Shown here piece after piece: positions 5,044 to 56,808 of a DNA stretch of 64,000 bases. The notes beneath the pieces were generated by a model. That model searched no databases. It saw only the letters and a program-made list of their open reading frames with translations, and had not been told where the DNA came from. Origin of the DNA: an uncultured Bdellovibrionales bacterium (GTDB lineage: Bacteria > Patescibacteriota > Minisyncoccia > Moranbacterales > UBA1568); assembly GCA_964348835.1 (NCBI GenBank), contig CAYGEA010000001.1:5201-69200 (forward strand). Reading direction: 5' to 3'. The position numbers and the translations under genes are program-made. Positions within the stretch are counted from its first letter, which is position 1. Every line of letters begins with the position of its first letter.

Positions 5044-6855
5044 ATGAATTTTTCTAAAAAAAACAGTGTACGTGACTGGAAAAGGTATCAAATACCTCTT
5101 TTTTTGATCGTTATTATTGGCATCGGACTTTTTATCCGACTGTATGAGATTGGCGATTGGCTGCACTTTGAATTAGATCAGGCAAGAGATGCACGAGTTA
5201 TTGATCGAACATTAGAAGGCGACCCGCTTGACTTGCCGCTCCTTGGTCCAAAGGCAGGAGGTACTTTTTTGCGTCTTGGTCCGGGATTTTACTACTTAGA
5301 ATACATTGGAGCGGAGCTTTTTGGTGGAGCGGTCATTGGCGGAGCAGTGATGGTGGCACTCGCATCCGCAGCCAGTATTCTCCTTTTCTTTCTCTTTATA
5401 AAGCCTCTCTTTCTCTCACGGATGACGCTTGCACTGACGCTCTTGTTTTCCATATCCACCTATCTCGTGTTGTATGGGCGTTTTGCGTGGAATCCCAATT
5501 TTATTCCTTTTTTTGCTTTGCTTGGTTTCTACAGTCTGTTACGAGCGGTTGATAATGAAGAAAAATATCAGGGTCGTTGGCTTTTGGTATCCGCTCTCGG
5601 ACTCGGACTCGGAACACAGATGCATTTCTTGGCATTTTTGGCGTTACCAATGATTGCCCTTCTCTTTCTTATTATCAAGCGACCAAAAATCGCGCTGAAG
5701 TTTTGGATAGGTGCCCTCTTTCTTGTTCTCGTATTGTATCTTCCGATGGCACTGAACGAAATCGCTACTGGTGGACTGAATACACAGGAATTTTTTGGGG
5801 CTTTATCAGAAAAATCTACGAAAGAAGACCACCCAATCATTGAAAAGGTGGTGCGGAATGTGAGCGAATTTAGCCTGCACGGCATCGTGATTCTCACTGG
5901 TTTTGAAGGAGCAACTTTTCCAGCTATTATTATCAAGGATGGAACTTTCGGATCGGTCTGTGACGAAAAGTGCGATCGGGGAAAGTGGTACGGCGTTGTA
6001 AGTATCATGTTGCTTGGTCTGGCAAGCCTCACCTTATTCAAAAGGTTTTTGAGAGAAGAGCGCGGTCAAGCGGCCGATACACTCCTCCTTTCTTTTTTAT
6101 GGTTTGGCGTTACTTTTGCCCTCTTTTTGCCGCTCTCATACGGGGTGGCACCGCGTTTTTTTCTTTTGAATGCGCCTCTTTTCTTTCTACTCCTCGGGGT
6201 CTTCCTCAACTTTTTACAAGATCTTTTGTTTCGCGATAAGAGAGTTGGACAGGCTGCCACTTTCTGTATAGTTATGTTATTCGTCGCGTTAAACGGATAT
6301 TTTTTACTACAGCGTTTCAGCGAACTCAAACAGGCTGGCATAAAAGCAGTAGAAAGCGCGCCGGATCGCATCTTGAAAGAACGCGTGCGCGTGACCCGAG
6401 AACAACAGCTCGCTATTGTAGATTTTTTACAAGCGCAAGCGACTCTCAGAGGTGGGGTGCCGATCTATATGTTCAGCGAGCCGCAGTACCGCCGCGCTCT
6501 CAAGTATCTGATGGAACAACGCGGTATGGAGAATGACGTGCTCGGCTTCAGTGGAATCTACCGTCAGGGGGTATACTTCCTTATCATTCGTACCCAGTCA
6601 AGTATGGAAAACGGATTGAAGAAATACAGGGAAAGCTATACCGTTGGAGAAACGACATCTTTTGGAACACTGATAGCCATTGAGCTTTTCCCCAAACCAG
6701 AGGCCATTATGGGGGAGCGTCAGAACTTTTCTATTGAAGAGAAAGCAAGTGTTTCCAAAGCGCCTCCACGCTATACGCTGCGCGAATTTTTAGCCAGGAG
6801 CAGTACCCAAGAGAAAGAAGAAGGCAATGAGGACGAATTTCTTAATGAAGAATAA
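5044..6855 (+). CDS. GT-C fold membrane glycosyltransferase (ArnT/PMT-like), paralogue 4
   Basis: 603-aa ORF. N-terminus IPLFLIVIIGIGLFIRLYEIGDWLHFELDQARDA...LPLLGPKAGGTFLRLGPGFYY is typical of 4-amino-arabinose/mannosyl transferase family N-termini. About 12 TM helices. Confidence 0.7.
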   Translation: MNFSKKNSVRDWKRYQIPLFLIVIIGIGLFIRLYEIGDWLHFELDQARDARVIDRTLEGDPLDLPLLGPKAGGTFLRLGPGFYYLEYIGAELFGGAVIGGAVMVALASAASILLFFLFIKPLFLSRMTLALTLLFSISTYLVLYGRFAWNPNFIPFFALLGFYSLLRAVDNEEKYQGRWLLVSALGLGLGTQMHFLAFLALPMIALLFLIIKRPKIALKFWIGALFLVLVLYLPMALNEIATGGLNTQEFFGALSEKSTKEDHPIIEKVVRNVSEFSLHGIVILTGFEGATFPAIIIKDGTFGSVCDEKCDRGKWYGVVSIMLLGLASLTLFKRFLREERGQAADTLLLSFLWFGVTFALFLPLSYGVAPRFFLLNAPLFFLLLGVFLNFLQDLLFRDKRVGQAATFCIVMLFVALNGYFLLQRFSELKQAGIKAVESAPDRILKERVRVTREQQLAIVDFLQAQATLRGGVPIYMFSEPQYRRALKYLMEQRGMENDVLGFSGIYRQGVYFLIIRTQSSMENGLKKYRESYTVGETTSFGTLIAIELFPKPEAIMGERQNFSIEEKASVSKAPPRYTLREFLARSSTQEKEEGNEDEFLNEE

Positions 6856-6858
6856 TCT

Positions 6859-9138
6859 ATGCGGTTCCGTAACGAAGTTATATTACTCGGTGGTTTGATG
6901 AGTGCTTTTGTGTGGCTCATTCCCTTCTCAGTGCCCGATGCGTTGGCAGCCAATACCTACTATGTCAAAGAGGGTGAAGACGGAGATGGATCTGAGAGCG
7001 ATCCCTTCGGCTCTATTGAGGACGCGGTGGCAGAGATGAAAGACAAAGGCGGCAAGAAAATTATAGTGTCACAAGGCTCTTACGGGGCAGGCTTTACCTT
7101 GCCAAAAGGAGTGGAACTGGTGGGATCGGATACGAAAGAAGTTATCATCAAAGGCGCTATCCGGATGGAAGATAAGTCCGAACTTTCTGAGGTGACGGTT
7201 GATACCGGAGGAATCTTGGTCGCTGGCAAGGCTGATGTGACGATAGCCAAAGTGCGGGTGCGGGATGTGCTCTTGGTCGGGATCAAAGTAGAAGAGGGGG
7301 ACGGCACAGTCACGATACAAAATACGGAAATCACCGGCTGTAAGAAGGGGATGTATCTTCAAAAAGGCAATGAGATCCGCATTGAAAATGTAGTAGTCAG
7401 CGACAATCGGGAAGAAGGCATCGATATTCGAGAAAATGTTTCCGGCAGTATCCGAAAAAGCGTTTTCAAAAACAACGGGGAATCCGGCATAGAAGTAGTC
7501 CTTGGGAGCTCGGATTTATTGATACAGGACAATACATTTTCCGACAATGGTGCCAGCGGGGTGGCGACGCAGTTTTTCCACGGCGTCAAAAAGATTGGCG
7601 ACGTCAGGATTGACAATAACACGATGAACAATAATACCAATTATGGCGTTGACTGCAAGACACCGCAGGGAGGGCTGGAATCACGTGATTATTTCCTTAA
7701 TTCTATCGGTGTCTCCGGGAATACTTTTTCAAAAAACAAGGTTGGAGAGATAGCCAAAAAATGTCGGATACTCACCGATGAAGAACGTATCGCTCTTGAT
7801 GTAAAAAAATCGGTGCAGTACGACGAAGTATATTCTCCTGAGGAATTTGCTGAACGAGTGCAACGCGATGCCACGGCGCGCAGGGTATATAATGACGGAA
7901 GAGAAAAAGAGGAGCGAGAGAGGGTTGAAATAAGGGTTGGTGAAGTAGAGGGGCTCGTCACTTCTCTCCGAAGCGCCCAAGAAAAATTTGTTGGAAGATC
8001 GCCATTTGGATGTTTTGTCCTTGGAAAAGACAGTCGGCTGAAAAAAGCCCTGCTCGCGGATGTGGACAAAGCAGGGGTTTTGTTTGAGCGTTTAGCACGT
8101 GAGAATAACGATTTGATTTTTGAAACTAATCGGCATTTAGTGAGTGAATCGCTGACGGAATATATGGAAACACTTACCCGTCTCCGTGAAGCTCTTTCTC
8201 TGCCACTGTGCCACATCTCCCTCTTTGGCTGGCTGAATGAGATGATCGCCGCAAAGCTTCCGCCACAAACACTTTTGCCTCTCGACGCAGGCGCCAGTAT
8301 TTCACTCTTTCCCGTTTCAAAGGAACGTACGATTCTTTTTCTCGGAAACATCGGTTATACTTCTAAAAACCGGATGCAGGCTTTCAAAAATGGTGATGAT
8401 TCCGCCTTCACTGAAATCAGCGACCGACTCAGATCTTTTGACACGGTCGTGGCAGATCTGACTTCACCAATTATCGACGAAGCTGATCCGGCGCCCCTCC
8501 AAAATAGCATCGCTCCTCTCGTACTCCCGGCACGCTTTGCTAATATCTTTGCGGTACAGAATATCGGATTGTTCCACTTAGGTCAATCACCGCTCTTCAA
8601 GGTAGTGAAGGAAAAAGGCGAGACAGGGTATACCAAGACAAGAATCAATATGCTTTTGGGAACAGTGGAGACGTTTGGCGGCGATGGAGCAGAACCGAGT
8701 AAAAAAATAGTACTCGATGGGATACCGGTAACCTTTGTACACTTCATAGAGTCCAAAACCGGAGCGCCGGAAGAAACAATAAGCCTTATTAGAGAGGCGA
8801 AAGAAGTCAGCCGCACGGTTATCGTCTATACTGCCTACGACAGGGGAATTTCTGCAAAACTTTCCCAAGAACGCCAGGAAGTCGCACGACAATTTATTGA
8901 AGCAGGAGCGACGCTCGTCATTGGATCAGGACTGATGCTGCCGTTTGAGTATGAAACAGTTGGGGACGGACGAATATATCATTCACTGGGAAATTTTTGG
9001 ACTGGAGGAGAACCGACCAACGAAGCGATCGGGCTAGCCCTCAGACTTTCCATTGATGAGGGAGGACAGGTGACATTTGGAGAAGAAAATGTTTTCTTCA
9101 ATGAAGAGGGAAAAATTATATTCGCGCCTAAAGAATAA
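6859..9138 (+). CDS. Secreted right-handed parallel beta-helix repeat protein fused to a C-terminal CapA/PGA_cap-like (metallophosphatase-fold) domain
   Basis: Signal peptide MRFRNEVILLGGLMSAFVWLIPFSVPDALA. Repeated beta-helix (PbH1) units run along ...IQNTEITGC.../...IENVVVSDN.../...FKNNGESG.../...IQDNTFSDN.... The C-terminal ~400 aa carry LFLGNIGY...FDTVVADLTSPI...YHSLGNFWTGGE, which resembles CapA-family motifs. The usual ANNH is replaced by ANIFAVQNIG here. Confidence 0.55.
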   Translation: MRFRNEVILLGGLMSAFVWLIPFSVPDALAANTYYVKEGEDGDGSESDPFGSIEDAVAEMKDKGGKKIIVSQGSYGAGFTLPKGVELVGSDTKEVIIKGAIRMEDKSELSEVTVDTGGILVAGKADVTIAKVRVRDVLLVGIKVEEGDGTVTIQNTEITGCKKGMYLQKGNEIRIENVVVSDNREEGIDIRENVSGSIRKSVFKNNGESGIEVVLGSSDLLIQDNTFSDNGASGVATQFFHGVKKIGDVRIDNNTMNNNTNYGVDCKTPQGGLESRDYFLNSIGVSGNTFSKNKVGEIAKKCRILTDEERIALDVKKSVQYDEVYSPEEFAERVQRDATARRVYNDGREKEERERVEIRVGEVEGLVTSLRSAQEKFVGRSPFGCFVLGKDSRLKKALLADVDKAGVLFERLARENNDLIFETNRHLVSESLTEYMETLTRLREALSLPLCHISLFGWLNEMIAAKLPPQTLLPLDAGASISLFPVSKERTILFLGNIGYTSKNRMQAFKNGDDSAFTEISDRLRSFDTVVADLTSPIIDEADPAPLQNSIAPLVLPARFANIFAVQNIGLFHLGQSPLFKVVKEKGETGYTKTRINMLLGTVETFGGDGAEPSKKIVLDGIPVTFVHFIESKTGAPEETISLIREAKEVSRTVIVYTAYDRGISAKLSQERQEVARQFIEAGATLVIGSGLMLPFEYETVGDGRIYHSLGNFWTGGEPTNEAIGLALRLSIDEGGQVTFGEENVFFNEEGKIIFAPKE

Positions 9139-12311: not shown

Positions 12312-13781
12312 CTAAGCTTTTTTGAAAAGTTTTATGAGTGGGGCGGTGTCGGCTGGTTGCAATTCACCAAAGAGCTTGAGGAAAGCGAAGTAGAGGAAAA
12401 AGAGTAGCGCTCCGGAAGCGAGGAAGCTGTAGGCGCCTTGGGGGAGAATGTATGCCAGCAGGGTTATGAGGAAGGTAGAAAGCAACGAAAGCATAATCGT
12501 TTTCACGGAGAGACGGACATTGAAATGGCGGCTCGTGTAGAAGAGAACGCTCTGCATCAGCAGGAAAGAAATGAGAGTGGTAGCCAGTGCTGCACCAGAG
12601 AGCGCCAAGGCCGGAATAAGAAGAAAGTTGAGCAGTATCATCCCAAAAAAACCGAAACATGCCAAATACATCGGTATTTTCACCAATCCAGCTCCATTGA
12701 GGGCAAAACTGAGAACATAAAAAACCGTGAGAAACCCGACACCAAGCGCAAAAATACTCATCGGGTAGGCGGCTTCACCGTAGACTGTTCCATAAAAAAG
12801 ATGCAGGACTTGCGGCGCGTATATGATGAGCAGGGTCACCATCGGAAAGAGAAGGAGCACCATAAGACGGAGAGCTGTATTGACCAATGTTTCCGTTTCT
12901 TGGGTATTGCGCTCGGCAGTAGTTTTGGAAATAGCCGGCAAGAGAACGATCGTCAAGGCGTAGAAGAGATAGTATGGAATACGCCCGACAGTAATGGCGG
13001 CGCTGTAAATACCAGTCAGGTAATCGTCCTTGAGAAGAGCTTTGACGAAATAAAGATCGAGCGTCAGAATCAATTCATAGAAAACAAGAAAAAGGGTAAG
13101 CGGTCCGGCATAGAGCAGGATCGTTTTGCCTGAGAATGCGATGGGCGCGGTATCTGATTGCTTGGTAGCGGGAAAATAGCGGTGCGTAATGAAGATATCG
13201 GCGCACAGTGCGATCAGAAAAACGAGAAGTGGAGCGGCGATGTATCCAGAGAGTGCGCCTTTGATGCCGAAAAAGTACGCGAAACTGACAATAAATAAAA
13301 CACGTCCGAGCGCGCGAATTGTTTTGAGTATCGCCTGCAGTCTGAAAAAATGGAGTCCGGTGAAATAATAGAAATAAAAAGAAGCCGCCGCGAATGCCGG
13401 AATGATGAGGGACGAGAGCTGGAACAGAGGGGTTAGCGTCGCATCGGAGAGAGCCCAAGCGATGAGTGGGGAAGAAAAAAAGAAAAGCGCGGTCACGCCG
13501 AGCATCAGGAAAACCTGTAGTTTGATAGCTTTGTGCTTGATGCCGAGAATCCGCTCTGGGGAACTTTCAAATATCTCGCTCAAATATTTGGACATCGCCG
13601 TCGGGATGCCGTTGCCGATGAGGATGATAATCATCGTCGTCAGTGTCACCACCAGACTGAAGCGTCCATAATCAGCTGGGCCGAGAATACGTCCAACCGA
13701 TGCGTGGATGATGTAGCCGGCAAGATTGAAAATAATTTCAGAAACCGTGAGCCACACGACTGCTTGGGAGAATTTTTTCAT
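12312..13781 (-). CDS. Polysaccharide/oligosaccharide flippase, MOP superfamily (Wzx-like)
   Basis: 489 aa with 12-14 predicted TM helices. Typical Wzx/PST organisation. The start ATG overlaps the TGA of the upstream kinase gene (ATGA). Confidence 0.65.
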   Translation of the reverse strand: MKKFSQAVVWLTVSEIIFNLAGYIIHASVGRILGPADYGRFSLVVTLTTMIIILIGNGIPTAMSKYLSEIFESSPERILGIKHKAIKLQVFLMLGVTALFFFSSPLIAWALSDATLTPLFQLSSLIIPAFAAASFYFYYFTGLHFFRLQAILKTIRALGRVLFIVSFAYFFGIKGALSGYIAAPLLVFLIALCADIFITHRYFPATKQSDTAPIAFSGKTILLYAGPLTLFLVFYELILTLDLYFVKALLKDDYLTGIYSAAITVGRIPYYLFYALTIVLLPAISKTTAERNTQETETLVNTALRLMVLLLFPMVTLLIIYAPQVLHLFYGTVYGEAAYPMSIFALGVGFLTVFYVLSFALNGAGLVKIPMYLACFGFFGMILLNFLLIPALALSGAALATTLISFLLMQSVLFYTSRHFNVRLSVKTIMLSLLSTFLITLLAYILPQGAYSFLASGALLFFLYFAFLKLFGELQPADTAPLIKLFKKA

Positions 13782-30406: not shown

Positions 30407-31714
30407 ATGGAACCAACATCTGCCAAAGACCAAACGCCGACAGAAACCCTCCGCCAGTATGAGCGCGGACACAGGATCTTCAAAAAATCCTTTGTTTTTT
30501 TCTTGGTGTTCTTTCTTATCGGTCTGGCTTTTTGGAGCGGCTATGAGCGAGGTAAAGATACGCTGGCTACCAGCGCGGAGTCGGATACCCTGCTCTCACC
30601 AGAAGACGCCGTCATCCTCAACAAAAACAATCCGGACAAGACGGTGGATTTTGCACTGTTTTGGAAAGTCTGGGGACTCCTCAAAGACAAATACGTCGAT
30701 GGGGGGAAGCTTGATGCCAACGAGCTCTTTTATGGCGCCATCGATGGGATGCTGGCCGCGACCGGCGATCCCTACACGACATTCTTCGATCCCAAAGAAC
30801 AGAAGGAATTTCAGGAAGAGATTTCCGGTGTTTTTGAGGGTATCGGCGCTGAAATGGGGATAAAAGACAAAGTCTTGACGATCATCGCTCCGCTCGAAGG
30901 AATGCCCGCCGAAAAAGCCGGGTTGATGGCAGGTGACAAGATTCTAAAGATAGATGACCAAAGTACGACTCTCTTGTCTCTTGAGGAAGCGGTGAGCAAG
31001 ATCAGGGGAACCAAAGGAACAGAAGTCACACTCACCCTGTTCCGTGATGGTGATGAAGAATCCCACGATATTACCGTCAAGCGCGATACCATCCTCGTCA
31101 AAAGCGTACGTTTCGAGATGAAGGAAGATACCATCGCCTTTATCCGGGTTAGCCGTTTCGGCGATGATACGGAGCGCGACTGGAAGACAGCCGTCAGACA
31201 GGCACTCGATCAGAAAGCGACTGGACTGATCATCGATATGCGTAATAATCCCGGCGGATTCCTTGAAACGTCCATCGAGATGGCCAGCCTGATGTTGCCG
31301 AAAGGCAATGTGGTGGTGATGGAAGAAGACGGATCCGGAAAACGCAAAGAGATGAAAGCCCGCGGAGGAGATGTGCTGTCTCAGATACCGACCGTCGTCC
31401 TCATCAACGAGGGGAGCGCCAGCGCCTCAGAAATCCTAGCGGGAGCGCTTCGCGACAACCGCGATAACGTCACCATCGTCGGCAAGAAATCATTTGGTAA
31501 AGGCTCTGTGCAGGAACTCATTTCTGTCAGCAAAGATACTTCCGTAAAAATCACCGTCGCCCGCTGGCTGACACCGGCCGGTCATCAGATCAATACCGTC
31601 GGCATCAGTCCTGATGTCGAAGTCACCATCACTCGTGATGATCTCGACAACAAGCGCGACCCACAGCTGGACAAGGCTTTGGAAATCCTTAAGGGACAGA
31701 ATAAGGAATCATAA
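30407..31714 (+). CDS. ctpA: Carboxy-terminal processing protease (S41 family, PDZ domain)
   Basis: PDZ region GDKILKIDDQST, then the S41 catalytic block NEGSASASEILAGAL and FGKGSVQ. Has an N-terminal TM. Confidence 0.8.
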   Translation: MEPTSAKDQTPTETLRQYERGHRIFKKSFVFFLVFFLIGLAFWSGYERGKDTLATSAESDTLLSPEDAVILNKNNPDKTVDFALFWKVWGLLKDKYVDGGKLDANELFYGAIDGMLAATGDPYTTFFDPKEQKEFQEEISGVFEGIGAEMGIKDKVLTIIAPLEGMPAEKAGLMAGDKILKIDDQSTTLLSLEEAVSKIRGTKGTEVTLTLFRDGDEESHDITVKRDTILVKSVRFEMKEDTIAFIRVSRFGDDTERDWKTAVRQALDQKATGLIIDMRNNPGGFLETSIEMASLMLPKGNVVVMEEDGSGKRKEMKARGGDVLSQIPTVVLINEGSASASEILAGALRDNRDNVTIVGKKSFGKGSVQELISVSKDTSVKITVARWLTPAGHQINTVGISPDVEVTITRDDLDNKRDPQLDKALEILKGQNKES

Positions 31715-31939
31715 TACTCCTACCTTTTACTGAGAGGAGTTTCTCGATCGCAAGCAACCTTCCCGGGAGCCAGTCATTCATCCAGCGATGAATTCCCTTA
31801 TGAAATTTTTTCGATCCGTCCCGCCAAAGCGGTACGGCACCATGCTCGAAAAAACTTCAACTCTCCCAGAAAGATTCTTGCGACGGGAAACTTTCCTGAC
31901 AGACATTTTGCAATATCCGGGTAAAATTTTGGTATCACA

Positions 31940-32102
31940 TACGTACACAAAAGATTTTTTCAGCTCTCGCTCTACCTGTTTGAAGAAAGGCTCTCGGTTC
32001 GGAAAAAAGAGCTTCTCCGCCGTTGATTGGGGGCTGATTTTTCCGCTAACCGAGAGCCTTGATGAGTCTAGAGCGGAGATGAAAAAATCTTTTGTGTACG
32101 TA
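31940..32102. repeat. ~165-bp extended nested palindrome (MITE-like or structured-RNA-like element) in the ctpA-groES intergenic region
   Basis: The outer 22-bp arms TACGTACACAAAAGATTTTTTC (31940..31961) and its exact reverse complement (32081..32102) are perfect. Inner 13-bp arms are AAGGCTCTCGGTT (31988..32000) / AACCGAGAGCCTT (32048..32060). A further pair is CGGAAAAAA (32000..32008) / TTTTTCCG (32038..32045). Confidence 0.8.
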
Positions 32103-32136
32103 CCCACATATATTAAGAGTAGGTTTGATCCTCTTC

Positions 32137-32174
32137 AGCACTCTGTTGACTTGACTGCTGATAGTGCTTATACT
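32137..32174 (+). promoter_or_regulatory. groES promoter (TTGACT -17- TATACT) overlapped by a CIRCE-like inverted repeat
   Basis: -35 TTGACT at 32146..32151, a 17-nt spacer, then -10 TATACT at 32169..32174. AGCACTC-N9-GACTGCT (32137..32159) matches the CIRCE core AGCACTC-N9-GAGTGCT with one mismatch. An additional AGTGCT sits at 32163..32168. Confidence 0.55.
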
Positions 32175-32205
32175 GGATACATCCATAATCAGTAAAGATA
32201 AAGAT

Positions 32206-32481
32206 ATGTCAAAAACGAATGTCAAACCGCTCGGCGAAAATGTCCTCATCCAGCCGGAAAAGCCGGAACAAAAAACTTCAGCCGGTATCTATCTGCCAGA
32301 CACCGCGAGTCAAGAGCGCTCCCAGCTCGGCAAAGTCATAGCAGTAGGGGAAAGCGACAAGATCAAGGTCAAAGCCGGTCAGAAGGTTATTTTCCGACGC
32401 TACGGAGGTGAAGAAATCAAGATCGAAGGCGCCGAATACCTCATCACCAGCTACAAAGACATCCTCGCTATCGTCGGGTAA
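32206..32481 (+). CDS. groES: Co-chaperonin GroES (10 kDa chaperonin)
   Basis: MSKTNVKPLGENVLIQPEKPEQKTSAGIYLPDTASQE...GKVIAVGE...GQKVIFRRYGGEEIKIEGAEYLI has the mobile loop and roof hairpin. No groEL follows; a terminator and a convergent gene do. Confidence 0.85.
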   Translation: MSKTNVKPLGENVLIQPEKPEQKTSAGIYLPDTASQERSQLGKVIAVGESDKIKVKAGQKVIFRRYGGEEIKIEGAEYLITSYKDILAIVG

Positions 32482-32545: not shown

Positions 32546-32570
32546 CTTCAAGAATACCGACCCAAGAGTT

Positions 32571-36970: not shown

Positions 36971-37169
36971 AGCTCTATTCTAGCTGGATTAGCCCGTAAA
37001 CTCCAGCACCATAGTACTTTTCTTGCAATTGTAAGAAAAGTACTACTGATAAAAAAGAAAGTTATTGACCAGCAATGTGAAATATGTTTCAATTGTATTC
37101 TCAAGTAAGATGTACTTGCGACTGCACCGGCAGACCTCCGGAATGTACATTCAAAAGAAAGGAAACATC

Positions 37170-37721
37170 ATGAGCGCAAATGGAGTGATGCACGACCGGT
37201 TCAAATTGGTTAACACCTTTGAGATCGTTGTGCCGGAAGGTTACGATCATTACACTCGCTTGGATTCGTTCGCTAAGTCACACAACAAGGAGTTCCAATA
37301 CTTCAACAGTGAAATCACTGACGCAAACTTCCGCTGGGCTACGACGAAACTCAAACCAGGATGGAAGTTCAAGGTGAAGGTCTTCGAGATCAAGGAGATA
37401 GCGAAATCCGAAGACTGCATGGCGAAGCTCCGTTCGGAGAAAGCTATTTTCGTCGGCGCTCAGGGAGCCTCGCTCGTCTGGGAGCAGAAAAAGCAAGAAC
37501 TGCCGGACAATCGGTGGTTCGCTTCCTTCGATGAGAAAGACGCTCTTTGGAAGGATGCCCACGACTACCACAGGGTGCCGCTCGTGGGCCGCCACTCGGG
37601 CGAGGTCTTCAAGTTCGACCTCGGCTACTTCGGGATCGGCTGGATCGACGACGACGGCATCTGCCTCCTCTGCTTCTGCGATGTAAAAAAGCCAAAAAAA
37701 TATCTCGGAAAACTGAACTAA
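37170..37721 (+). CDS. Hypothetical protein (no recognisable domain)
   Basis: The ATG is preceded by AAAGGAAA. About 183 aa. The C-terminus carries a Cys pair (ICLLCFCD). A stem-loop follows. Confidence 0.4.
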   Translation: MSANGVMHDRFKLVNTFEIVVPEGYDHYTRLDSFAKSHNKEFQYFNSEITDANFRWATTKLKPGWKFKVKVFEIKEIAKSEDCMAKLRSEKAIFVGAQGASLVWEQKKQELPDNRWFASFDEKDALWKDAHDYHRVPLVGRHSGEVFKFDLGYFGIGWIDDDGICLLCFCDVKKPKKYLGKLN

Positions 37722-37742
37722 TCAGTTTCCTCTTCAAGCCTC

Positions 37743-37785
37743 GTGCCTCTTACTAAATGTATTTTAGTGGGAGGCACATTTTTTT
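37743..37785 (+). terminator. Putative rho-independent terminator
   Basis: GTGCCTC ... GAGGCAC stem (7 bp, long loop) followed by ATTTTTTT. Confidence 0.4.
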
Positions 37786-38014
37786 ATATAAATACTCTGA
37801 AATAAAAACATTAACTCTCTCTCTGCCAAATTTACATTTATTGGAGAGTAAACTCCAGCTCTGGCACCAGACCGATATTGATTCTTTTTATATATTCTGC
37901 TATAGTGATACATTATCGGAATGAACTGATAATCACTGTAGGTAAACCGTGTCTCAGTGCGTATTGGACATTAACAATTCAGACTTTCAACCCTTACACC
38001 TTACAAGGAGGACA

Positions 38015-38635: not shown

Positions 38636-38747
38636 GGGCTGAATCACAGAAAAACCAAAAAAGTCCCGGAGAAATCATCGATCTCTCTGGGACTTTTTCA
38701 TACCCGCATTGGTTGCTTTTTTGGCTCATCTCTGCCATAGTAGAGAT

Positions 38748-45390: not shown

Positions 45391-46029
45391 CTACCCCCTC
45401 TCACTAACTGGATTGGGATATGCCGGAATAGATAATACTTTCTTTATAAAGTTGTCCATGGTAATGAGCTCAATATTCTCAGGAAACTTAATCTTCTTTC
45501 GTTCAACAAGTAACGACACATCCCCTTCAGTGAGTTTTTTTGAAAACAATACCAAATACATTTTTTCTTTTAAATGTGAATATTTTCGAACTTTGATATA
45601 CACATTCGACGAAAGATCATGCGGTGTTTCTGTCGTAAAGATATCTACAGAGAAATTTTCAATCGGATTAAATACATAAAAATCAGCACGGAGCTTTTTT
45701 TCTGTATCGATAGGCTTTTCTAGGTGTACGAACGGTTCATGGAATTTTGCATATAAAATATCTCTCAATCTAGCCTCACTTATTCTAGAGCGTTGATTTG
45801 ATTCAAAACCAATTTTTGATCGATGCTCACCTTTTGAGAGATAAACATCTTTATGTCCAATTAATTTTCGGAGCTGTGGAAGTCCCCCAAATAATCTTTG
45901 AATCTGACGACTTGACGGTAAATATTCAAATTTATCCACCTCTTGAGAAGCAGGAAGTCTCCCGTACTTTTTTTGAAATCGCTCAAAACCATCTTTTATT
46001 TTTTCTAAAGTCCATCTTTTAGCGCCCAT
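45391..46029 (-). CDS. Hypothetical protein, AT-rich; downstream partner of the AAA+ ATPase
   Basis: 212 aa with no recognisable motif. A possible degenerate D...D/E..K pattern is RADFYVFNP...SVDIFTTET...YIKVRKY. Compositionally atypical. There is a 46-nt gap after the ATPase gene on the same strand. Confidence 0.5.
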   Translation of the reverse strand: MGAKRWTLEKIKDGFERFQKKYGRLPASQEVDKFEYLPSSRQIQRLFGGLPQLRKLIGHKDVYLSKGEHRSKIGFESNQRSRISEARLRDILYAKFHEPFVHLEKPIDTEKKLRADFYVFNPIENFSVDIFTTETPHDLSSNVYIKVRKYSHLKEKMYLVLFSKKLTEGDVSLLVERKKIKFPENIELITMDNFIKKVLSIPAYPNPVSERG

Positions 46030-46074
46030 ATACGATACTTCAAAAAAATATTTAATCTCTTGTTTTTACGAATC

Positions 46075-47265
46075 TTATTTTTTAATATCAAAAATTGGCA
46101 TAATCCGTTTCATGAAATCTCCAAATAATGGAACAGTAAATTCTGTATCTCCATACGCGGGACTATATATCATTCCCTTAGCAATTAAATTACTTCTGAA
46201 TGGAGCAACTTTTTGAACATCAGTATTGAGTTTCTCTGCTATGTCTCCAGATCTATGCGGTCCGGGGCCAAGTTCTGCCATAGCTCTTAGATATTCCCTC
46301 TCTCTTGGTGTTAGTCTATCAAAGCGAACTCTAAAAAAATTTTGATCCAGTCTACTGATTGATGCACTAGTCGCTCTTTTTAGAACATCTACACCCACAG
46401 GTGATTTTTCAGCAATTTCCCAAGATTGATACCCCCACTCTTGTAAAAAATATGGATATTTTTCTGTGATTCGTAAAATTTCTTTGAGAGCTTCATGAGT
46501 AAATTTTACTCCTTCTGCTTTCATCGGTTCTTGCAATGCTTTCATGGCGTCTTCATCAGATAGAGGGCCTATTTCAGGATAATTAAACAATCTTTCTGCG
46601 TATGATTTAGCATTACCAGCTTTTCCACGAAGTTGTGGTAATCCAGCCCCAATAATTACTAGCGGAAGAGATTTTTGAGAAATTTTATGTGAAGCCATTA
46701 TCAAAGAGCTAAGCTCTTCTTCAGACAAATATTGCATCTCGTCGATAATAAGAACTATTGCGGTTTCAGAAGCACGGGCCGCTTCACCTAAAGCAATAAA
46801 TAATTGGGCAAGATCAGCCTCAAGGTCACCACTATCAGCAGTTCCTTTTTCAGGATTAATATCAATTCCAAGCTCGACCTCTTGTATTTTTACCCTTAAA
46901 CCTGAAACAAAACTCTTCAGTACTCGTAGGCCTCTTTTTACCTTTTCATTGACACCTTCTTTTGCATCTAAGCTGAAAAGAAGTTGTCGTAGATAAGGGA
47001 TCAAAAGTTCTGGTAAAGCCTTATTTTCATGGGCTTCAATCATAACAACCTTGTAGCCGTCTGTTTCAGCAAGCTCAGAGATTTTATGCAAAAGTACGGT
47101 CTTCCCTACACCGCGTAGACCTACTAATAAAAGACTTTTCTCTGGACGACCTCTTTTCACTCGAGCAAGAGCCAGCATAGCTTTTTCAAGAATCTCTGAC
47201 CGACCAGCAAGCTCGGGAGGTGGAGTTCCGGCGCCTGGAGAAAAGGGGTTTCGTAAAGGATCCAT
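46075..47265 (-). CDS. AAA+ ATPase of the Arch_ATPase/AAA_16 (STAND-like) type with C-terminal winged-helix-like region
   Basis: N-terminal NPFSPGAGTPPPELAGRSEILEKAMLAL...LLLVGLRGVGKTVLL (Walker A). Walker B is IVLIIDEMQYL. C-terminal segment is LTPREREYLRAMAELGPGPHRSGDIAEKL. Both this gene and its 212-aa partner are AT-rich. Confidence 0.65.
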   Translation of the reverse strand: MDPLRNPFSPGAGTPPPELAGRSEILEKAMLALARVKRGRPEKSLLLVGLRGVGKTVLLHKISELAETDGYKVVMIEAHENKALPELLIPYLRQLLFSLDAKEGVNEKVKRGLRVLKSFVSGLRVKIQEVELGIDINPEKGTADSGDLEADLAQLFIALGEAARASETAIVLIIDEMQYLSEEELSSLIMASHKISQKSLPLVIIGAGLPQLRGKAGNAKSYAERLFNYPEIGPLSDEDAMKALQEPMKAEGVKFTHEALKEILRITEKYPYFLQEWGYQSWEIAEKSPVGVDVLKRATSASISRLDQNFFRVRFDRLTPREREYLRAMAELGPGPHRSGDIAEKLNTDVQKVAPFRSNLIAKGMIYSPAYGDTEFTVPLFGDFMKRIMPIFDIKK

Positions 47266-47442
47266 TGATTGTATATAGTTTAATAAGTTTATCTATATTA
47301 TCTTTAAACTAGCATAATTTTACTAAACTTGTAAAGACTGGTAAAAAATGGAGTCACAAAATAGGGCTGTTCTCTTACAGAACTCTCTATTTTTCCCTAT
47401 TGATTACTCATGAAGCTTGAGCAGCGGTTTAAAAAATAAAAA

Positions 47443-47478
47443 CGGAAGGTGCTGGGATCAGCTCCTTCCGGATTTTTT
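47443..47478. terminator. Rho-independent terminator downstream of the GGDEF gene
   Basis: CGGAAGGTGCTG ggat CAGCTCCTTCCG stem followed by GATTTTTT. An A-run lies on the other side. Confidence 0.6.
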
Positions 47479-47484
47479 GATAGT

Positions 47485-48291
47485 TTACGATACTATACCT
47501 TTCTTTTCTTTCAGAACGCGGTTGCGTCCCTGATCTTTGGCCACATATAAGAGTGCATCCGTCCTGCTGACAAGGTCAGCAAAGATATTCTCACTGGTGA
47601 GATGCAGATTGGCAACCTCCGTTTCCGCAATGCCGACACTGACCGTCACAGATAGCCTTTGCTGACGCTGATCATCCAGATGAATAATCGTTCTTTCGAT
47701 GGCATCACGAAAAATTGATGCCTGATCGTAAGCATACTGTATGCTTGATTGCGGAAGGACGATGAGAAATTCTTCCCCGCCCCAACGGCCAAGAATTTCT
47801 CCTTGGCGGTGACTGAAATATTCACCTATCAGATTACTGACAAGAACCAGCATCTGATCGCCCACCGTATGACCATGACGATCATTAACTGATTTGAAAT
47901 GATCAATGTCGATCATCAGCGCCACCACGTTTGGTGCCTTACGATGTTCTCCAACATCACGCATCGAACGTTTCCACGCATTGACCATCGCCGAAAATCT
48001 CAATTCAATACCACGCCTGTTGGCAAGTCCTGTGAGCGGATCTGTCACAGATTGCTCCAGTGCAACCTCAAGCGCCCGTTGAGTGACTTGCAGTTCCCTC
48101 TTAGCCTTTTGAAGACTTCTCTCAAGCTCGGCAATTTCCTCCGCCGGGCCAAATATGTCTCCTCCTCGGCTAAGGTATATTCCGTGACTCAGTGTAGGGT
48201 TGATGTTATCACCAAGCGTCACACCAAGATTGTGTTTGTTTGCATCATCACGCATTGTTCGTATTACCCTCCAGTTGTTGAGAAAAAACAA
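47485..48291 (-). CDS. GGDEF-domain diguanylate cyclase (no obvious sensor domain)
   Basis: Contains DPLTGLANRRG, ALMIDIDHFKSVNDRHGHTVGD and RWGGEEFLIVLP (GGEEF active site). About 100 aa of N-terminal coiled-coil-like leader. Confidence 0.8.
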   Translation of the reverse strand: MFFLNNWRVIRTMRDDANKHNLGVTLGDNINPTLSHGIYLSRGGDIFGPAEEIAELERSLQKAKRELQVTQRALEVALEQSVTDPLTGLANRRGIELRFSAMVNAWKRSMRDVGEHRKAPNVVALMIDIDHFKSVNDRHGHTVGDQMLVLVSNLIGEYFSHRQGEILGRWGGEEFLIVLPQSSIQYAYDQASIFRDAIERTIIHLDDQRQQRLSVTVSVGIAETEVANLHLTSENIFADLVSRTDALLYVAKDQGRNRVLKEKKGIVS

Positions 48292-48382
48292 AAATAATGC
48301 TTTTACAGAAGCAAAATCTCTCTGTCATATTTTTAATGTACTTTCATTCCATCATAGCACAAAAACAGATTATTGTCAATAG

Positions 48383-49627
48383 ATGAAAGAAACGATTTCT
48401 CTGATACAATATAATGGAGTTATAAGTATTCCGTATCAGTCCGCGTTAAGTCGGCATAAGTCTGCCTGTATGCGCATATCATACTCTGCCCTCGACACCT
48501 ATCAGACCTGCCCCTTGAAATACAAGTTCCGGCAGATAGACAAGATCAAAGAGCCCAAGTCCAAGGAGGCTGTTTTTGGCACGCTCTTACACTCAGTCCT
48601 CCACTACATCCACACGCCCGCCATCCTCTCCCCCTCTGTCGAACAGGCGCTTGATTATTTCGCCAAGGGTTGGAACAGCGAAGTGTATGAAAACGAGATG
48701 GAGGAGCGCGCGGCATTCTCTCAGGGCGTCACCATCGTCCAGAACTACCTCGCTCGGACCAAACCCGCAGACTACAACATCGTGGCGCTCGAAAGCCGTT
48801 TCGCCATAGAGATCGGCGACGACGAGTCCGGCAAGCACATCGTCTCGGGCATCATCGACCGCATCGACAAGACTGCGGACGGCTACGAGATCATCGACTA
48901 CAAGACCACGCGCAAGATGCCTTCGCAGGACAAGGTGGACAACGACATCCAGCTCTCTATTTATCTGCGCGCGTTTCTCGAACGCTACCCCAAAGAAATT
49001 GATAACCTCGACAAAATTACTGTCAGCCTCTACTACCTCAAGCACGGCGTAAAACTCTCTTCCAAGCGCACTCACGAACAACTGAAAAGTCTGGAAAAAA
49101 CATTTCTCGATGTCATCCACTCCATCGAAGAAGAGCAGTTCGACCCGATCCTCTCCCCTCTCTGCGACTGGTGCGGATACCAAAACATCTGCCCGCTCTG
49201 GAAACATAAATTTGCCGAGACCCGCAAACTGGAAACCGAAGAAGTCCACACCGCCATAAGCGAGTACCTCGACATCAAAGGAAAATTGAGCGAGGAGAAA
49301 CTGCGCCTCGCCAAACTACAAGCCATTATCCTTCAATATATGGAACAGGAGGGTGTTGATCGCGTGTTCGATGACAACGGCATCATCGCCAAATCGCTCC
49401 GCAAAACCTACAAATACGATGAGAAGAAACTGCGCGCCATCCTCGAACCGCTCGACAAATGGGAATCGGTGCTCAAAGTAGACGGCATCGCGCTGCGCAC
49501 TATCCTTGCCGTTCTCCCCTCCCCGACCCGCCAAGAAGCCGAGGAAGCCAAAGTACTCGATAAAGAAAGTACCACTCTCTCCGTCAAGAAAAACAAGATT
49601 GAAGCTGATGATGATTTGGCTTTTTAA
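48383..49627 (+). CDS. PD-(D/E)XK nuclease superfamily protein, RecB/AddB/Cas4-like with 4-Cys Fe-S cluster
   Basis: N-terminal YSALDTYQTCPLKYKFRQI, core SGIIDRIDKTADGYEIIDYKTTRK (D...E-x-K), QLSIYL (QxxxY), and C-terminal CDWCGYQNICPLW. About 130 aa of C-terminal extension with unknown function. 414 aa. Confidence 0.7.
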   Translation: MKETISLIQYNGVISIPYQSALSRHKSACMRISYSALDTYQTCPLKYKFRQIDKIKEPKSKEAVFGTLLHSVLHYIHTPAILSPSVEQALDYFAKGWNSEVYENEMEERAAFSQGVTIVQNYLARTKPADYNIVALESRFAIEIGDDESGKHIVSGIIDRIDKTADGYEIIDYKTTRKMPSQDKVDNDIQLSIYLRAFLERYPKEIDNLDKITVSLYYLKHGVKLSSKRTHEQLKSLEKTFLDVIHSIEEEQFDPILSPLCDWCGYQNICPLWKHKFAETRKLETEEVHTAISEYLDIKGKLSEEKLRLAKLQAIILQYMEQEGVDRVFDDNGIIAKSLRKTYKYDEKKLRAILEPLDKWESVLKVDGIALRTILAVLPSPTRQEAEEAKVLDKESTTLSVKKNKIEADDDLAF

Positions 49628-53610: not shown

Positions 53611-53681
53611 CTGGGGTGCTAGGAATCGAACCTAGGATCATAGGACCAGAACCTATTGCCTTACCGCTTGGCTACACCCCA
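53611..53681 (-). tRNA. tRNA-Gln (anticodon CUG)
   Basis: Manually folded. Acceptor stem TGGGGTG/CACCCCA, D-arm GCC-AAGCGGTAA-GGC (identical to the E. coli tRNA-Gln D-arm), anticodon stem ATAGG/CCTAT with loop TTCTGGT, T-arm CTAGG-TTCGATT-CCTAG, discriminator G. No encoded CCA. Position 37 is G, which is unusual. Confidence 0.8.
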
Positions 53682-56732: not shown

Positions 56733-56808
56733 TGGAGCCAAGACCGGGGATCGAACCCGGGACCTGCACGTTACGAATGTGCCGCTCTGCCGACTGAGCT
56801 ATCTTGGC
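56733..56808 (-). tRNA. tRNA-Thr (anticodon CGU), CCA encoded
   Basis: Folded manually. Acceptor GCCAAGA/TCTTGGC, D-arm GCTC-AGTCGGCA-GAGC, anticodon stem GCACA/CGTGC (one A·C mismatch at the bottom) with loop TTCGTAA, T-arm CCGGG-TTCGATC-CCCGG, discriminator T, then CCA. Confidence 0.8.

Follow-up and report, generated by a model that had tools for sequence, protein, structure and literature searches.

A 163-nt palindrome between ctpA and groES as a probable member of an interspersed hairpin repeat family in Candidatus Moraniibacteriota

Introduction

What is a long palindrome doing in the gap between ctpA and groES? The DNA studied here, hereafter the window, is a stretch of 64,000 nt (assembly GCA_964348835.1, contig CAYGEA010000001.1, positions 5,201 to 69,200), and its longest inverted repeat is a 163-nt palindrome, P, lying between the genes for an S41/CtpA peptidase (30407-31714) and Cpn10/GroES (32206-32481). 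The initial annotation, made from the sequence letters, placed an element of ~165 bp between these two genes and proposed that it could be a mobile element resembling a miniature inverted-repeat transposable element (MITE), a structured small RNA, or a recombination or regulatory site just upstream of the heat-shock promoter. Our analysis suggests that P is probably one copy of a lineage-specific family of non-coding hairpin repeats of ~150-170 bp, similar to MITEs and to REPINs (doublets of repetitive extragenic palindromic, or REP, sequences), in a subclade of Candidatus Moraniibacteriota. A MITE-like reading is favoured because diverged copies are found elsewhere, because copies are present or absent between close relatives, and because one copy lies in the opposite orientation.

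The host is a bacterium of Candidatus Moraniibacteriota (candidate phyla radiation, CPR/Patescibacteria), and the public genomes closest to it are two groundwater metagenome-assembled genomes (MAGs) of this group, nzgw503 (GCA_023261685.1) and nzgw504. CtpA of nzgw503 is 96% identical at the protein level and its DNA ~93% identical, compared with 74% for nzgw504. CPR bacteria such as Moraniibacteriota have tightly packed genomes of ~1 Mb that are usually thought to be repeat-poor, and a full-text search of the literature returned no description of interspersed palindromic repeats in them.

The palindrome and its fold

All three nested inverted-repeat pairs read in the initial annotation are present. 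The outer pair, TACGTACACAAAAGATTTTTTC, is an exact 22-mer at 31940-31961 and 32081-32102, 119 nt apart, and the outer arms reach 27 nt at 96% complementarity. This 22-mer occurs only twice in the 64 kb, against an expectation of 0.00 from 100 shuffles. The middle pair, AAGGCTCTCGGTT and AACCGAGAGCCTT (31987-31999 and 32048-32060), reaches 22 nt at 82% when extended. The inner pair consists of CGGAAAAAA and TTTTTCCG, and a 13-nt pair lies around the centre (Table 1). As a single strand P folds, as had been predicted, into one long hairpin of ~64 pairs with z = -10 to -12: -86.5 kcal/mol for the + strand as RNA (z = -10.1), -85.8 kcal/mol for the - strand as RNA (z = -11.2) and -56.5 kcal/mol with DNA parameters (z = -12.2). 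No shuffled sequence equalled P in any of the three computations. The ctpA-groES spacer is 100% identical in three ENA assemblies and 96% identical (97% within P itself) in one NCBI MAG and another ENA assembly, and since independent assemblies carry it, P is not an assembly artefact.

Copies of the palindrome in related genomes

The genome of nzgw503 (loci L014 and L024) carries three copies of P within 16 kb, all in the same orientation. One of them, c1, occupies the site orthologous to that of the window copy, while c2 and c3 are diverged paralogues, 77-80% identical, in other intergenic regions, c2 lying between an inserted cassette of a promoter and ORF168 on one side and a rhodanese gene on the other. 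At the c2 site the window retains only a 13-nt remnant of the left arm, and its c3 site is empty (Table 1). The multiple-copy check suggested by the initial annotation thus gave c2 and c3 as paralogues in nzgw503 and a single copy in the window. Alignment of these loci shows at least three paralogous sites in one related genome and gains or losses of copies between genomes ~93% identical.

A copy in another orientation is found at locus L009, where groES is ~97% identical to that of the window. Here P is reversed, including its asymmetric apex, beside the same CIRCE-like repeat and promoter. This copy is 93% identical to the window copy, and it meets the neighbouring sequence at an unrelated 17-nt junction as opposed to 29 nt in the window. 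Relatives with CtpA identities of 74-80% (L013, L019/L020, L023, L027 and L028-30) have spacers of 33-115 nt that hold neither P nor module A, a second structured block described below. Locus L022 (CtpA 79%) has a 468-nt spacer in which module A is present and the interior of P is absent; a single arm-like stretch, GAAAAATTCTTTTGCATGCGATAC, is collinear (94%) with the right arm and flank of the L009 copy. The simplest reading of these one-arm remnants, found at two sites, is that earlier copies were partly deleted, and single-arm remnants have been described for REP singlets (PMC3337134).

Neither nhmmer profiles nor a covariance model (R1, filters off) turned up another copy when the window and ~198 kb of sequence from related loci were searched, and their weak hits were ordinary terminators. 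Viral contigs gave no match to the apex of P or to the module A core, and a search of PLSDB plasmids in distant mode gave nothing. A protein search with one of the open reading frames (ORFs) running through P, ORF+135, made to reach other copies through spuriously called ORFs, also gave nothing, and one with the downstream ORF of L009, aimed at a longer contig of the strain with the reversed copy, yielded only a fragment of 66% identity on a contig of 1.2 kb.

Conserved anatomy of the family

The copies are homologous from about CAAAAG(W)ATTTTTT as far as its complement. At the outer end of each stem, ~8 bp are copy-specific and still complementary, and the flanks of the copies have no significant mutual similarity, so an extension of P into the flanks was rejected. 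An apparent flip of the c2 outer arms relative to c1 was likewise rejected as an artefact of A/T-run self-similarity, c3 aligning with both in one orientation. In the stem, 13 of 55 pairs are changed on both sides, compared with 5.3 +/- 1.7 in shuffles (0 of 500 reached 13) and 1-5 pairs in slid controls, and 92% of cells in the four sequences are paired. The alignment thus shows paralogues that keep a full-length stem by compensatory changes around a conserved asymmetric apex, whose family motif is GCTKCTCCGCCRTTGATTGGGGGC.

On the + strand the apex consists of an A-run, a short hairpin (32014-32033) with two G-U pairs and a T-run, which is the shape of an intrinsic terminator. A terminator scan called it in c1, c2 and c3 on the + strand only (6-bp apical hairpin and T5-7 run), and no T-run follows the full 163-nt hairpin on either strand. 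The apex G-U pairs exist on the + strand only; per copy there are 3-4 G-U pairs on the + strand and 0-2 on the - strand, and every copy is more stable on the + strand, by 3-8 kcal/mol. The stem is mostly strand-symmetric, as in a DNA palindrome, and the mild, consistent strand bias points to one of the two single strands as the relevant form. The small RNA among the initial proposals is conceivable on these data, with a strand bias that is only weak and no promoter common to the paralogues; Rfam gave no match at the gathering score in the window and none credible to E = 10 for 31700-32300 or to E = 1 for c2.

Coding potential

Two ORFs run through P on opposite strands, as first described, and we looked at whether either could be a gene. 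If ORF+135 or ORF-109 were a real small protein the palindrome would be incidental, a possibility that starts from both frames being open through P and from ORF+135 being equally long in L014. A search of 5.8 billion proteins gave no homologue for ORF+135, even at E <= 1, and neither ORF matches Pfam. Compared with its 93%-identical relative nzgw503, ORF+135 has 19 substitutions spread over codon positions as [7,5,7] (10 nonsynonymous, 5 synonymous), in contrast to [11,9,61] in ctpA, [2,1,10] in groES and [15,11,45] in the rhodanese gene. ORF-109 has no synonymous and 7 nonsynonymous differences and is shortened to 54 aa in L014. No gene was called at P by the gene callers of four assemblies. 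With no conserved homologue and no third-position excess, a protein at this place is extremely unlikely; the region is non-coding, as had been suspected, and these two ORFs of 100-135 aa should not be called as genes in annotation.

The groES control region

The ctpA-groES spacer is 491 nt long and runs through a weak hairpin after ctpA, module A, a linker, P, a 31-nt linker and a CIRCE-like repeat with promoter before reaching groES. The inverted repeat TCAGCACTC-N9-GACTGCTGA at 32134-32161, which is CIRCE-like by comparison with the CIRCE consensus, overlaps a predicted sigma-70-like promoter, TTGACT-17-TATACT, at 32146-32174. This control region is kept in L009, L014 and L022 whatever the state of P. 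P resembles a CIRCE/HrcA operator in being an inverted repeat upstream of groES, but the CIRCE-like site here is a separate 9-N9-9 repeat with P 31 nt further upstream, P is absent or inverted in relatives that keep the site, and the paralogues of P lie near unrelated genes. Because the groES control region is separate and conserved whatever the state of P, we conclude from the sequences compared that P is not the heat-shock operator, and the earlier proposal of a regulatory site for the heat-shock promoter is not supported.

Some further features of this region were noted. The CIRCE-like repeat overlaps the groES -35 box and is a perfect inverted repeat in L022. In the window groES is not followed by groEL, the next gene being a convergent one for a rhodanese-domain protein. 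In L019 and similar relatives the ctpA-groES spacer is 33 nt, leaving no room for a promoter.

Module A and contig breaks in the spacer

Module A, distinct from P, is folded into a three-way junction that consists of a long closing stem, in which several pairs are G-U, a hairpin rich in A/U whose tip is G+C, and one further small hairpin. It is 17-22 kcal/mol more stable on one strand. It has 0/152 differences from nzgw503, and its identity to L022 is 91.4%, compared with 77% for ctpA and 87% for groES. The differences that exist are mostly G-C to G-U exchanges, and neither an Rfam match nor a conserved ORF was found for it. L022 (2997-3161 +) and L017 (3506-3553 +) have module A on the opposite strand while its flanks are unchanged, with TTTTAYTG followed by AGGARCAGTTTCYCG at one end and CGGGAAACTKTTCCT followed by GACARACATTT at the other, so it was inverted in situ. 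We regard module A as a candidate new non-coding RNA or invertible module.

A further block of ~130 nt, module B, carries two REP-like hairpins, CCGCGGCAAGCCGCGG and CCAGGGCAAGCCCTGG, and occurs in L022 (2863-2992) and L018 (11301-11416). In L022, compared with L017, where module B is absent, a TTATT direct repeat stands on both sides of it; in L018 it has the opposite orientation and lies directly after the ctpA stop codon.

Logan contigs (k=31) of four samples all end at the window equivalent of 31863, inside module A, and two start at 32007, in the P apex (contigs L003-L005, L025, L008 and L010 have ends at one or the other). L017 ends at the window equivalent of 31853. No repeat of at least 31 nt that would explain these breaks exists in the window, and strain mixtures, further copies elsewhere or coverage loss at hairpins are possible causes. 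Contig breaks as proof of multi-copy status were rejected, the megahit breaks (L016/L007) being due to two strains sharing a 141-nt identical stretch. P and module A may explain part of the short-read assembly breaks in the spacer.

Weighing the explanations

Several observations do not sit easily with P being an interspersed repeat. Only five instances are known, and even a full covariance-model scan gives one copy in the 64-kb window. An exact scan of public genome and metagenome contigs with the 20-mer GAACCGAGAGCCTTTCTTCA, from which the related genome deviates by two bases, gave only two chance matches of 20-21 nt, although such scans are weak negatives because this 20-mer is not the most conserved part, which is the apex GAGCTTCTCCGCCGTTGATTGGGGGCT. 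The initial annotation also called for target-site duplications. There is none for c3 relative to the empty window site and none recognisable for c1; c2 is flanked by imperfect direct repeats of 9-19 nt, which partly overlap its own arm. No transposase or recombinase was seen among the window ORFs scanned, and no parent insertion sequence (IS) with matching ends was found in the window, which has the arm sequence at no other place. Conservation lies in the apex and not in the termini, the reverse of classical MITEs, which are defined by terminal inverted repeats, and of REPINs. Finally, the P interiors of the window and of nzgw503 are alike at all but 2 of 153 positions (1.3% difference), as against 3.5-9% in genes, 7-16% in linkers and 5-32% in other spacers, with the differences grouped at the stem ends (31937-31943 and 32097-32104). 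Such conservation is not what a decaying selfish insert would be expected to show; the low divergence reflects either purifying selection or recent recombinational exchange of the stretch, and the L009 copy (93%, compared with ~97% for groES) shows no such constraint. In favour of the initial MITE-like proposal stand the copies at other loci, the presence and absence and the opposite orientation; a clear target-site duplication and a transposase were not found.

The conservation of P raises the possibility of a host function, with P as a cis-acting RNA or single-stranded DNA (ssDNA) hairpin family under purifying selection and occasionally duplicated, acting as an insulator or terminator, an RNA-stability or RNase III site, or a small-RNA family. 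The c1 interior, 98.7% identical to that of nzgw503 and above the genes and linkers, with its differences at the very stem ends, fits this, as do the terminator-like apex with its T-run on the + strand in all three paralogues, the confinement of G-U pairs to that strand, and the orientation of all three nzgw503 copies along their upstream gene. Nonetheless we think it unlikely, since L009 has its copy reversed and at only 93% identity against ~97% for groES, most relatives are without P and the window is without c2 and c3, the genes upstream of c2 and c3 have their own terminators, and the paralogues have neither a common promoter nor an Rfam match. In addition, a perfect and nearly G-U-free stem of 23 bp with an equal fold on both strands points to symmetry at the DNA level and away from an RNA gene. 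An invertible DNA switch, with the arms as recombination sites and a flip that alters expression of groES or antisense transcription into ctpA, would account for the opposite interior and apex of L009 beside the same CIRCE-like repeat and promoter, for the inversion of the adjacent module A between lineages with conserved flanks, and for short-read contigs of several samples breaking inside the spacer. The flip is not a clean one, however, given the unrelated junction in L009. There is no evident promoter inside P, no invertase or recombinase gene was seen nearby, c2 and c3 lie beside unrelated genes and all assemblies of the window-type strain have one orientation, which together make a switch very unlikely. 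It is also conceivable, if rather improbable, that the spacer is a structured-module locus, in which module A as a non-coding RNA and P as a strand-specific hairpin with a terminator apex are both under purifying selection and both able to flip through their own inverted arms. If true, this would be a new RNA- or ssDNA-level element family in streamlined CPR genomes.

The most probable reading is P as an interspersed hairpin repeat. The relevant unit would be the + strand hairpin, as ssDNA or RNA, and such hairpins are the type of substrate used by transposases of the IS200/IS605 and RAYT (REP-associated tyrosine transposase) types, which are HUH (Y1) enzymes. Copies may spread into, and be deleted from, intergenic DNA downstream of genes, moving and excising as single-stranded hairpins by means of some enzyme; recombination at arm-like sequences rich in A/T would be an alternative route of spread. 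Correction of one arm by the other could maintain the symmetry of the palindrome even if selection played no part. Between ctpA and groES, P would have no dedicated heat-shock role, and at most its apex may insulate the HrcA/CIRCE-type groES promoter from ctpA read-through. Hairpin repeats that are gained, lost and flipped between genomes ~93% identical show active small-scale genome dynamics, and the family offers a marker for strain tracking. If the conservation of P and module A reflects function, they would be new non-coding elements in an uncultivated phylum.

Other features of the window

A cassette of 840 bp (37008-37847, in the region 36996-37859) is specific to the window and has a perfect 12-bp direct repeat, GTAAACTCCAGC, on both sides. 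It contains a 34-nt palindrome (37012-37045), a promoter-like TTGACC, a 218-aa ORF without Pfam match (37065-37721) and a terminator; in nzgw503 the 12-mer occurs once and the cassette is missing. A different cassette follows the groES terminator in nzgw503 (L014 6076-6745, equal to L024 ~6522-7190) and is absent from the window (32539/32540). It has a promoter, TTGACT-17-TATAAT, a leader of ~70 nt, ORF168 and a terminator. In L009 (470-1450) the same promoter and leader precede an unrelated 272-aa ORF (BLASTP E = 15). Neither ORF168 nor the 272-aa ORF matches Pfam, and different genes appear to have been swapped behind a shared leader. An accessory-looking cluster at 45391-49627, with two tRNA genes a few kb away (53611-53681 and 56736-56808), contains, besides the genes in Table 1, ORFs without Pfam match.

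Table 1. Features of the palindrome, its copies and neighbouring elements; positions are those of the window unless a locus is named.
Feature	Position	Strand	Remarks
Palindromic element P (copy c1)	31940..32102	.	163-nt hairpin-forming interspersed repeat
P left outer arm, 27 nt	31940..31966	+	outermost ~8 nt TACGTACA specific to c1; remainder CAAAAGATTTTTTCAG common to paralogues
P right outer arm, 27 nt	32076..32102	+	complementary to left outer arm
P left middle/inner arm AAGGCTCTCGGTTCGGAAAAAA	31987..32008	+	compensatory changes at four helix pairs among paralogues
P right middle/inner arm TTTTCCGCTAACCGAGAGCCTT	32039..32060	+	partner of left middle/inner arm
P asymmetric apex AAAAAAGAGCTTCTCCGCCGTTGATTGGGGGCT	32003..32036	+	best-conserved part of the family, near-invariant in all copies
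c1 of nzgw503	L024 5932-6094		orthologous site; 97% identical to window copy; -81 kcal/mol
c2	L014 ~6790-6948 = L024 ~7235-7395		79% over 144 nt; -84 to -89 kcal/mol
c3	L024 ~12730-12898		between ORF227 and ligT; 78% over 126 nt; -100 kcal/mol with flanks
c2 left-outer-arm remnant ACCGACCCAAGAG	32556..32568	+	matches first 13 nt of c2 left arm, complete in nzgw503
c3 empty site	38704..38708 (38705/38706)	.	nzgw503 has a 239-nt insertion (L024 12690-12928) holding the palindrome
ORF+135, spurious, 135 aa	31788..32195	+	through P; no homologue, no Pfam match, no coding substitution pattern
ORF-109, spurious, 109 aa	31778..32107	-	through P; no Pfam match; 0 synonymous, 7 nonsynonymous codon differences
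groES control region	32134..32174	+	separate from P; CIRCE-like repeat overlapping sigma-70-like promoter
Module A	31738..31899	- (more stable strand)	distinct from P; ~160-nt three-way-junction structure, extremely conserved
AAA_16/STAND-like ATPase	46075-47265		in accessory-looking cluster
GGDEF protein	47485-48291		in accessory-looking cluster
PD-(D/E)XK nuclease	48383-49627		in accessory-looking cluster

Comparison with known element families

Integron attC sites have an R''-L''...L'-R' organisation with a GTTRRRY core at the 3' end and close promoterless cassettes in an array next to intI. A recombination site of this type, belonging to the neighbouring cassette of L014, was considered and rejected, as P has no RYYYAAC...GTTRRRY at its ends and the loci contain neither an array nor an integrase. 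The cassette of L014 has its own promoter and terminator, and its indel is separate from that of c2.

REPINs, which are mobilised by RAYTs, are like P in forming a single long imperfect hairpin, whose active form would be a single strand of DNA or RNA, in having paralogues that diverge in sequence while keeping the hairpin, and in leaving single-arm remnants on partial excision (PMC3337134, PMC3116915). A REPIN has two conserved REP units of ~20-25 nt near its ends and a poorly conserved spacer (PMC3337134). P does not fit this definition because its centre is conserved and its ends vary, the apex being the most conserved part and the stem ends the least. REPINs are also ~90-110 nt long and number tens to hundreds of copies, whereas P is larger and has few, and no RAYT (Y1/HUH) gene was seen among the window ORFs scanned.

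Bacterial MITEs such as Coxiella QMITE2, Neisseria Correia, enterobacterial ERIC and pneumococcal RUP are comparable in their size of 100-250 bp and lack of coding capacity. Features by which MITEs are recognised are found in P, namely a length below ~300 bp without coding capacity, terminal inverted repeats and dispersed copies with presence and absence. The long terminal inverted repeats measure 27 nt in P and 23-29 bp in QMITE2, P is intergenic with a very stable hairpin transcript predicted, and there are several diverged copies whose presence varies between close relatives (PMC10969869). Unlike MITEs, P is without a clear target-site duplication or an identified cognate IS or transposase, its apex is the most conserved part while the outer ~8 bp vary between copies yet stay complementary, and only 1-3 copies occur in the DNA examined. 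Like the P copies, bacterial MITEs and pneumococcal repeats are intergenic and downstream of genes (PMC10969869, PMC3049150). Among the latter is SPRITE, which has no sequence similarity to P, belongs to another phylum and differs in that the predicted terminator hairpin of P is the tip of a ~65-bp stem. It resembles P in its conserved core, which is like an oversized intrinsic terminator with a stem and T-rich tract, in having neither a target-site duplication nor a parent IS established, and in its position near the 3' ends of genes and between convergent genes (PMC3049150).

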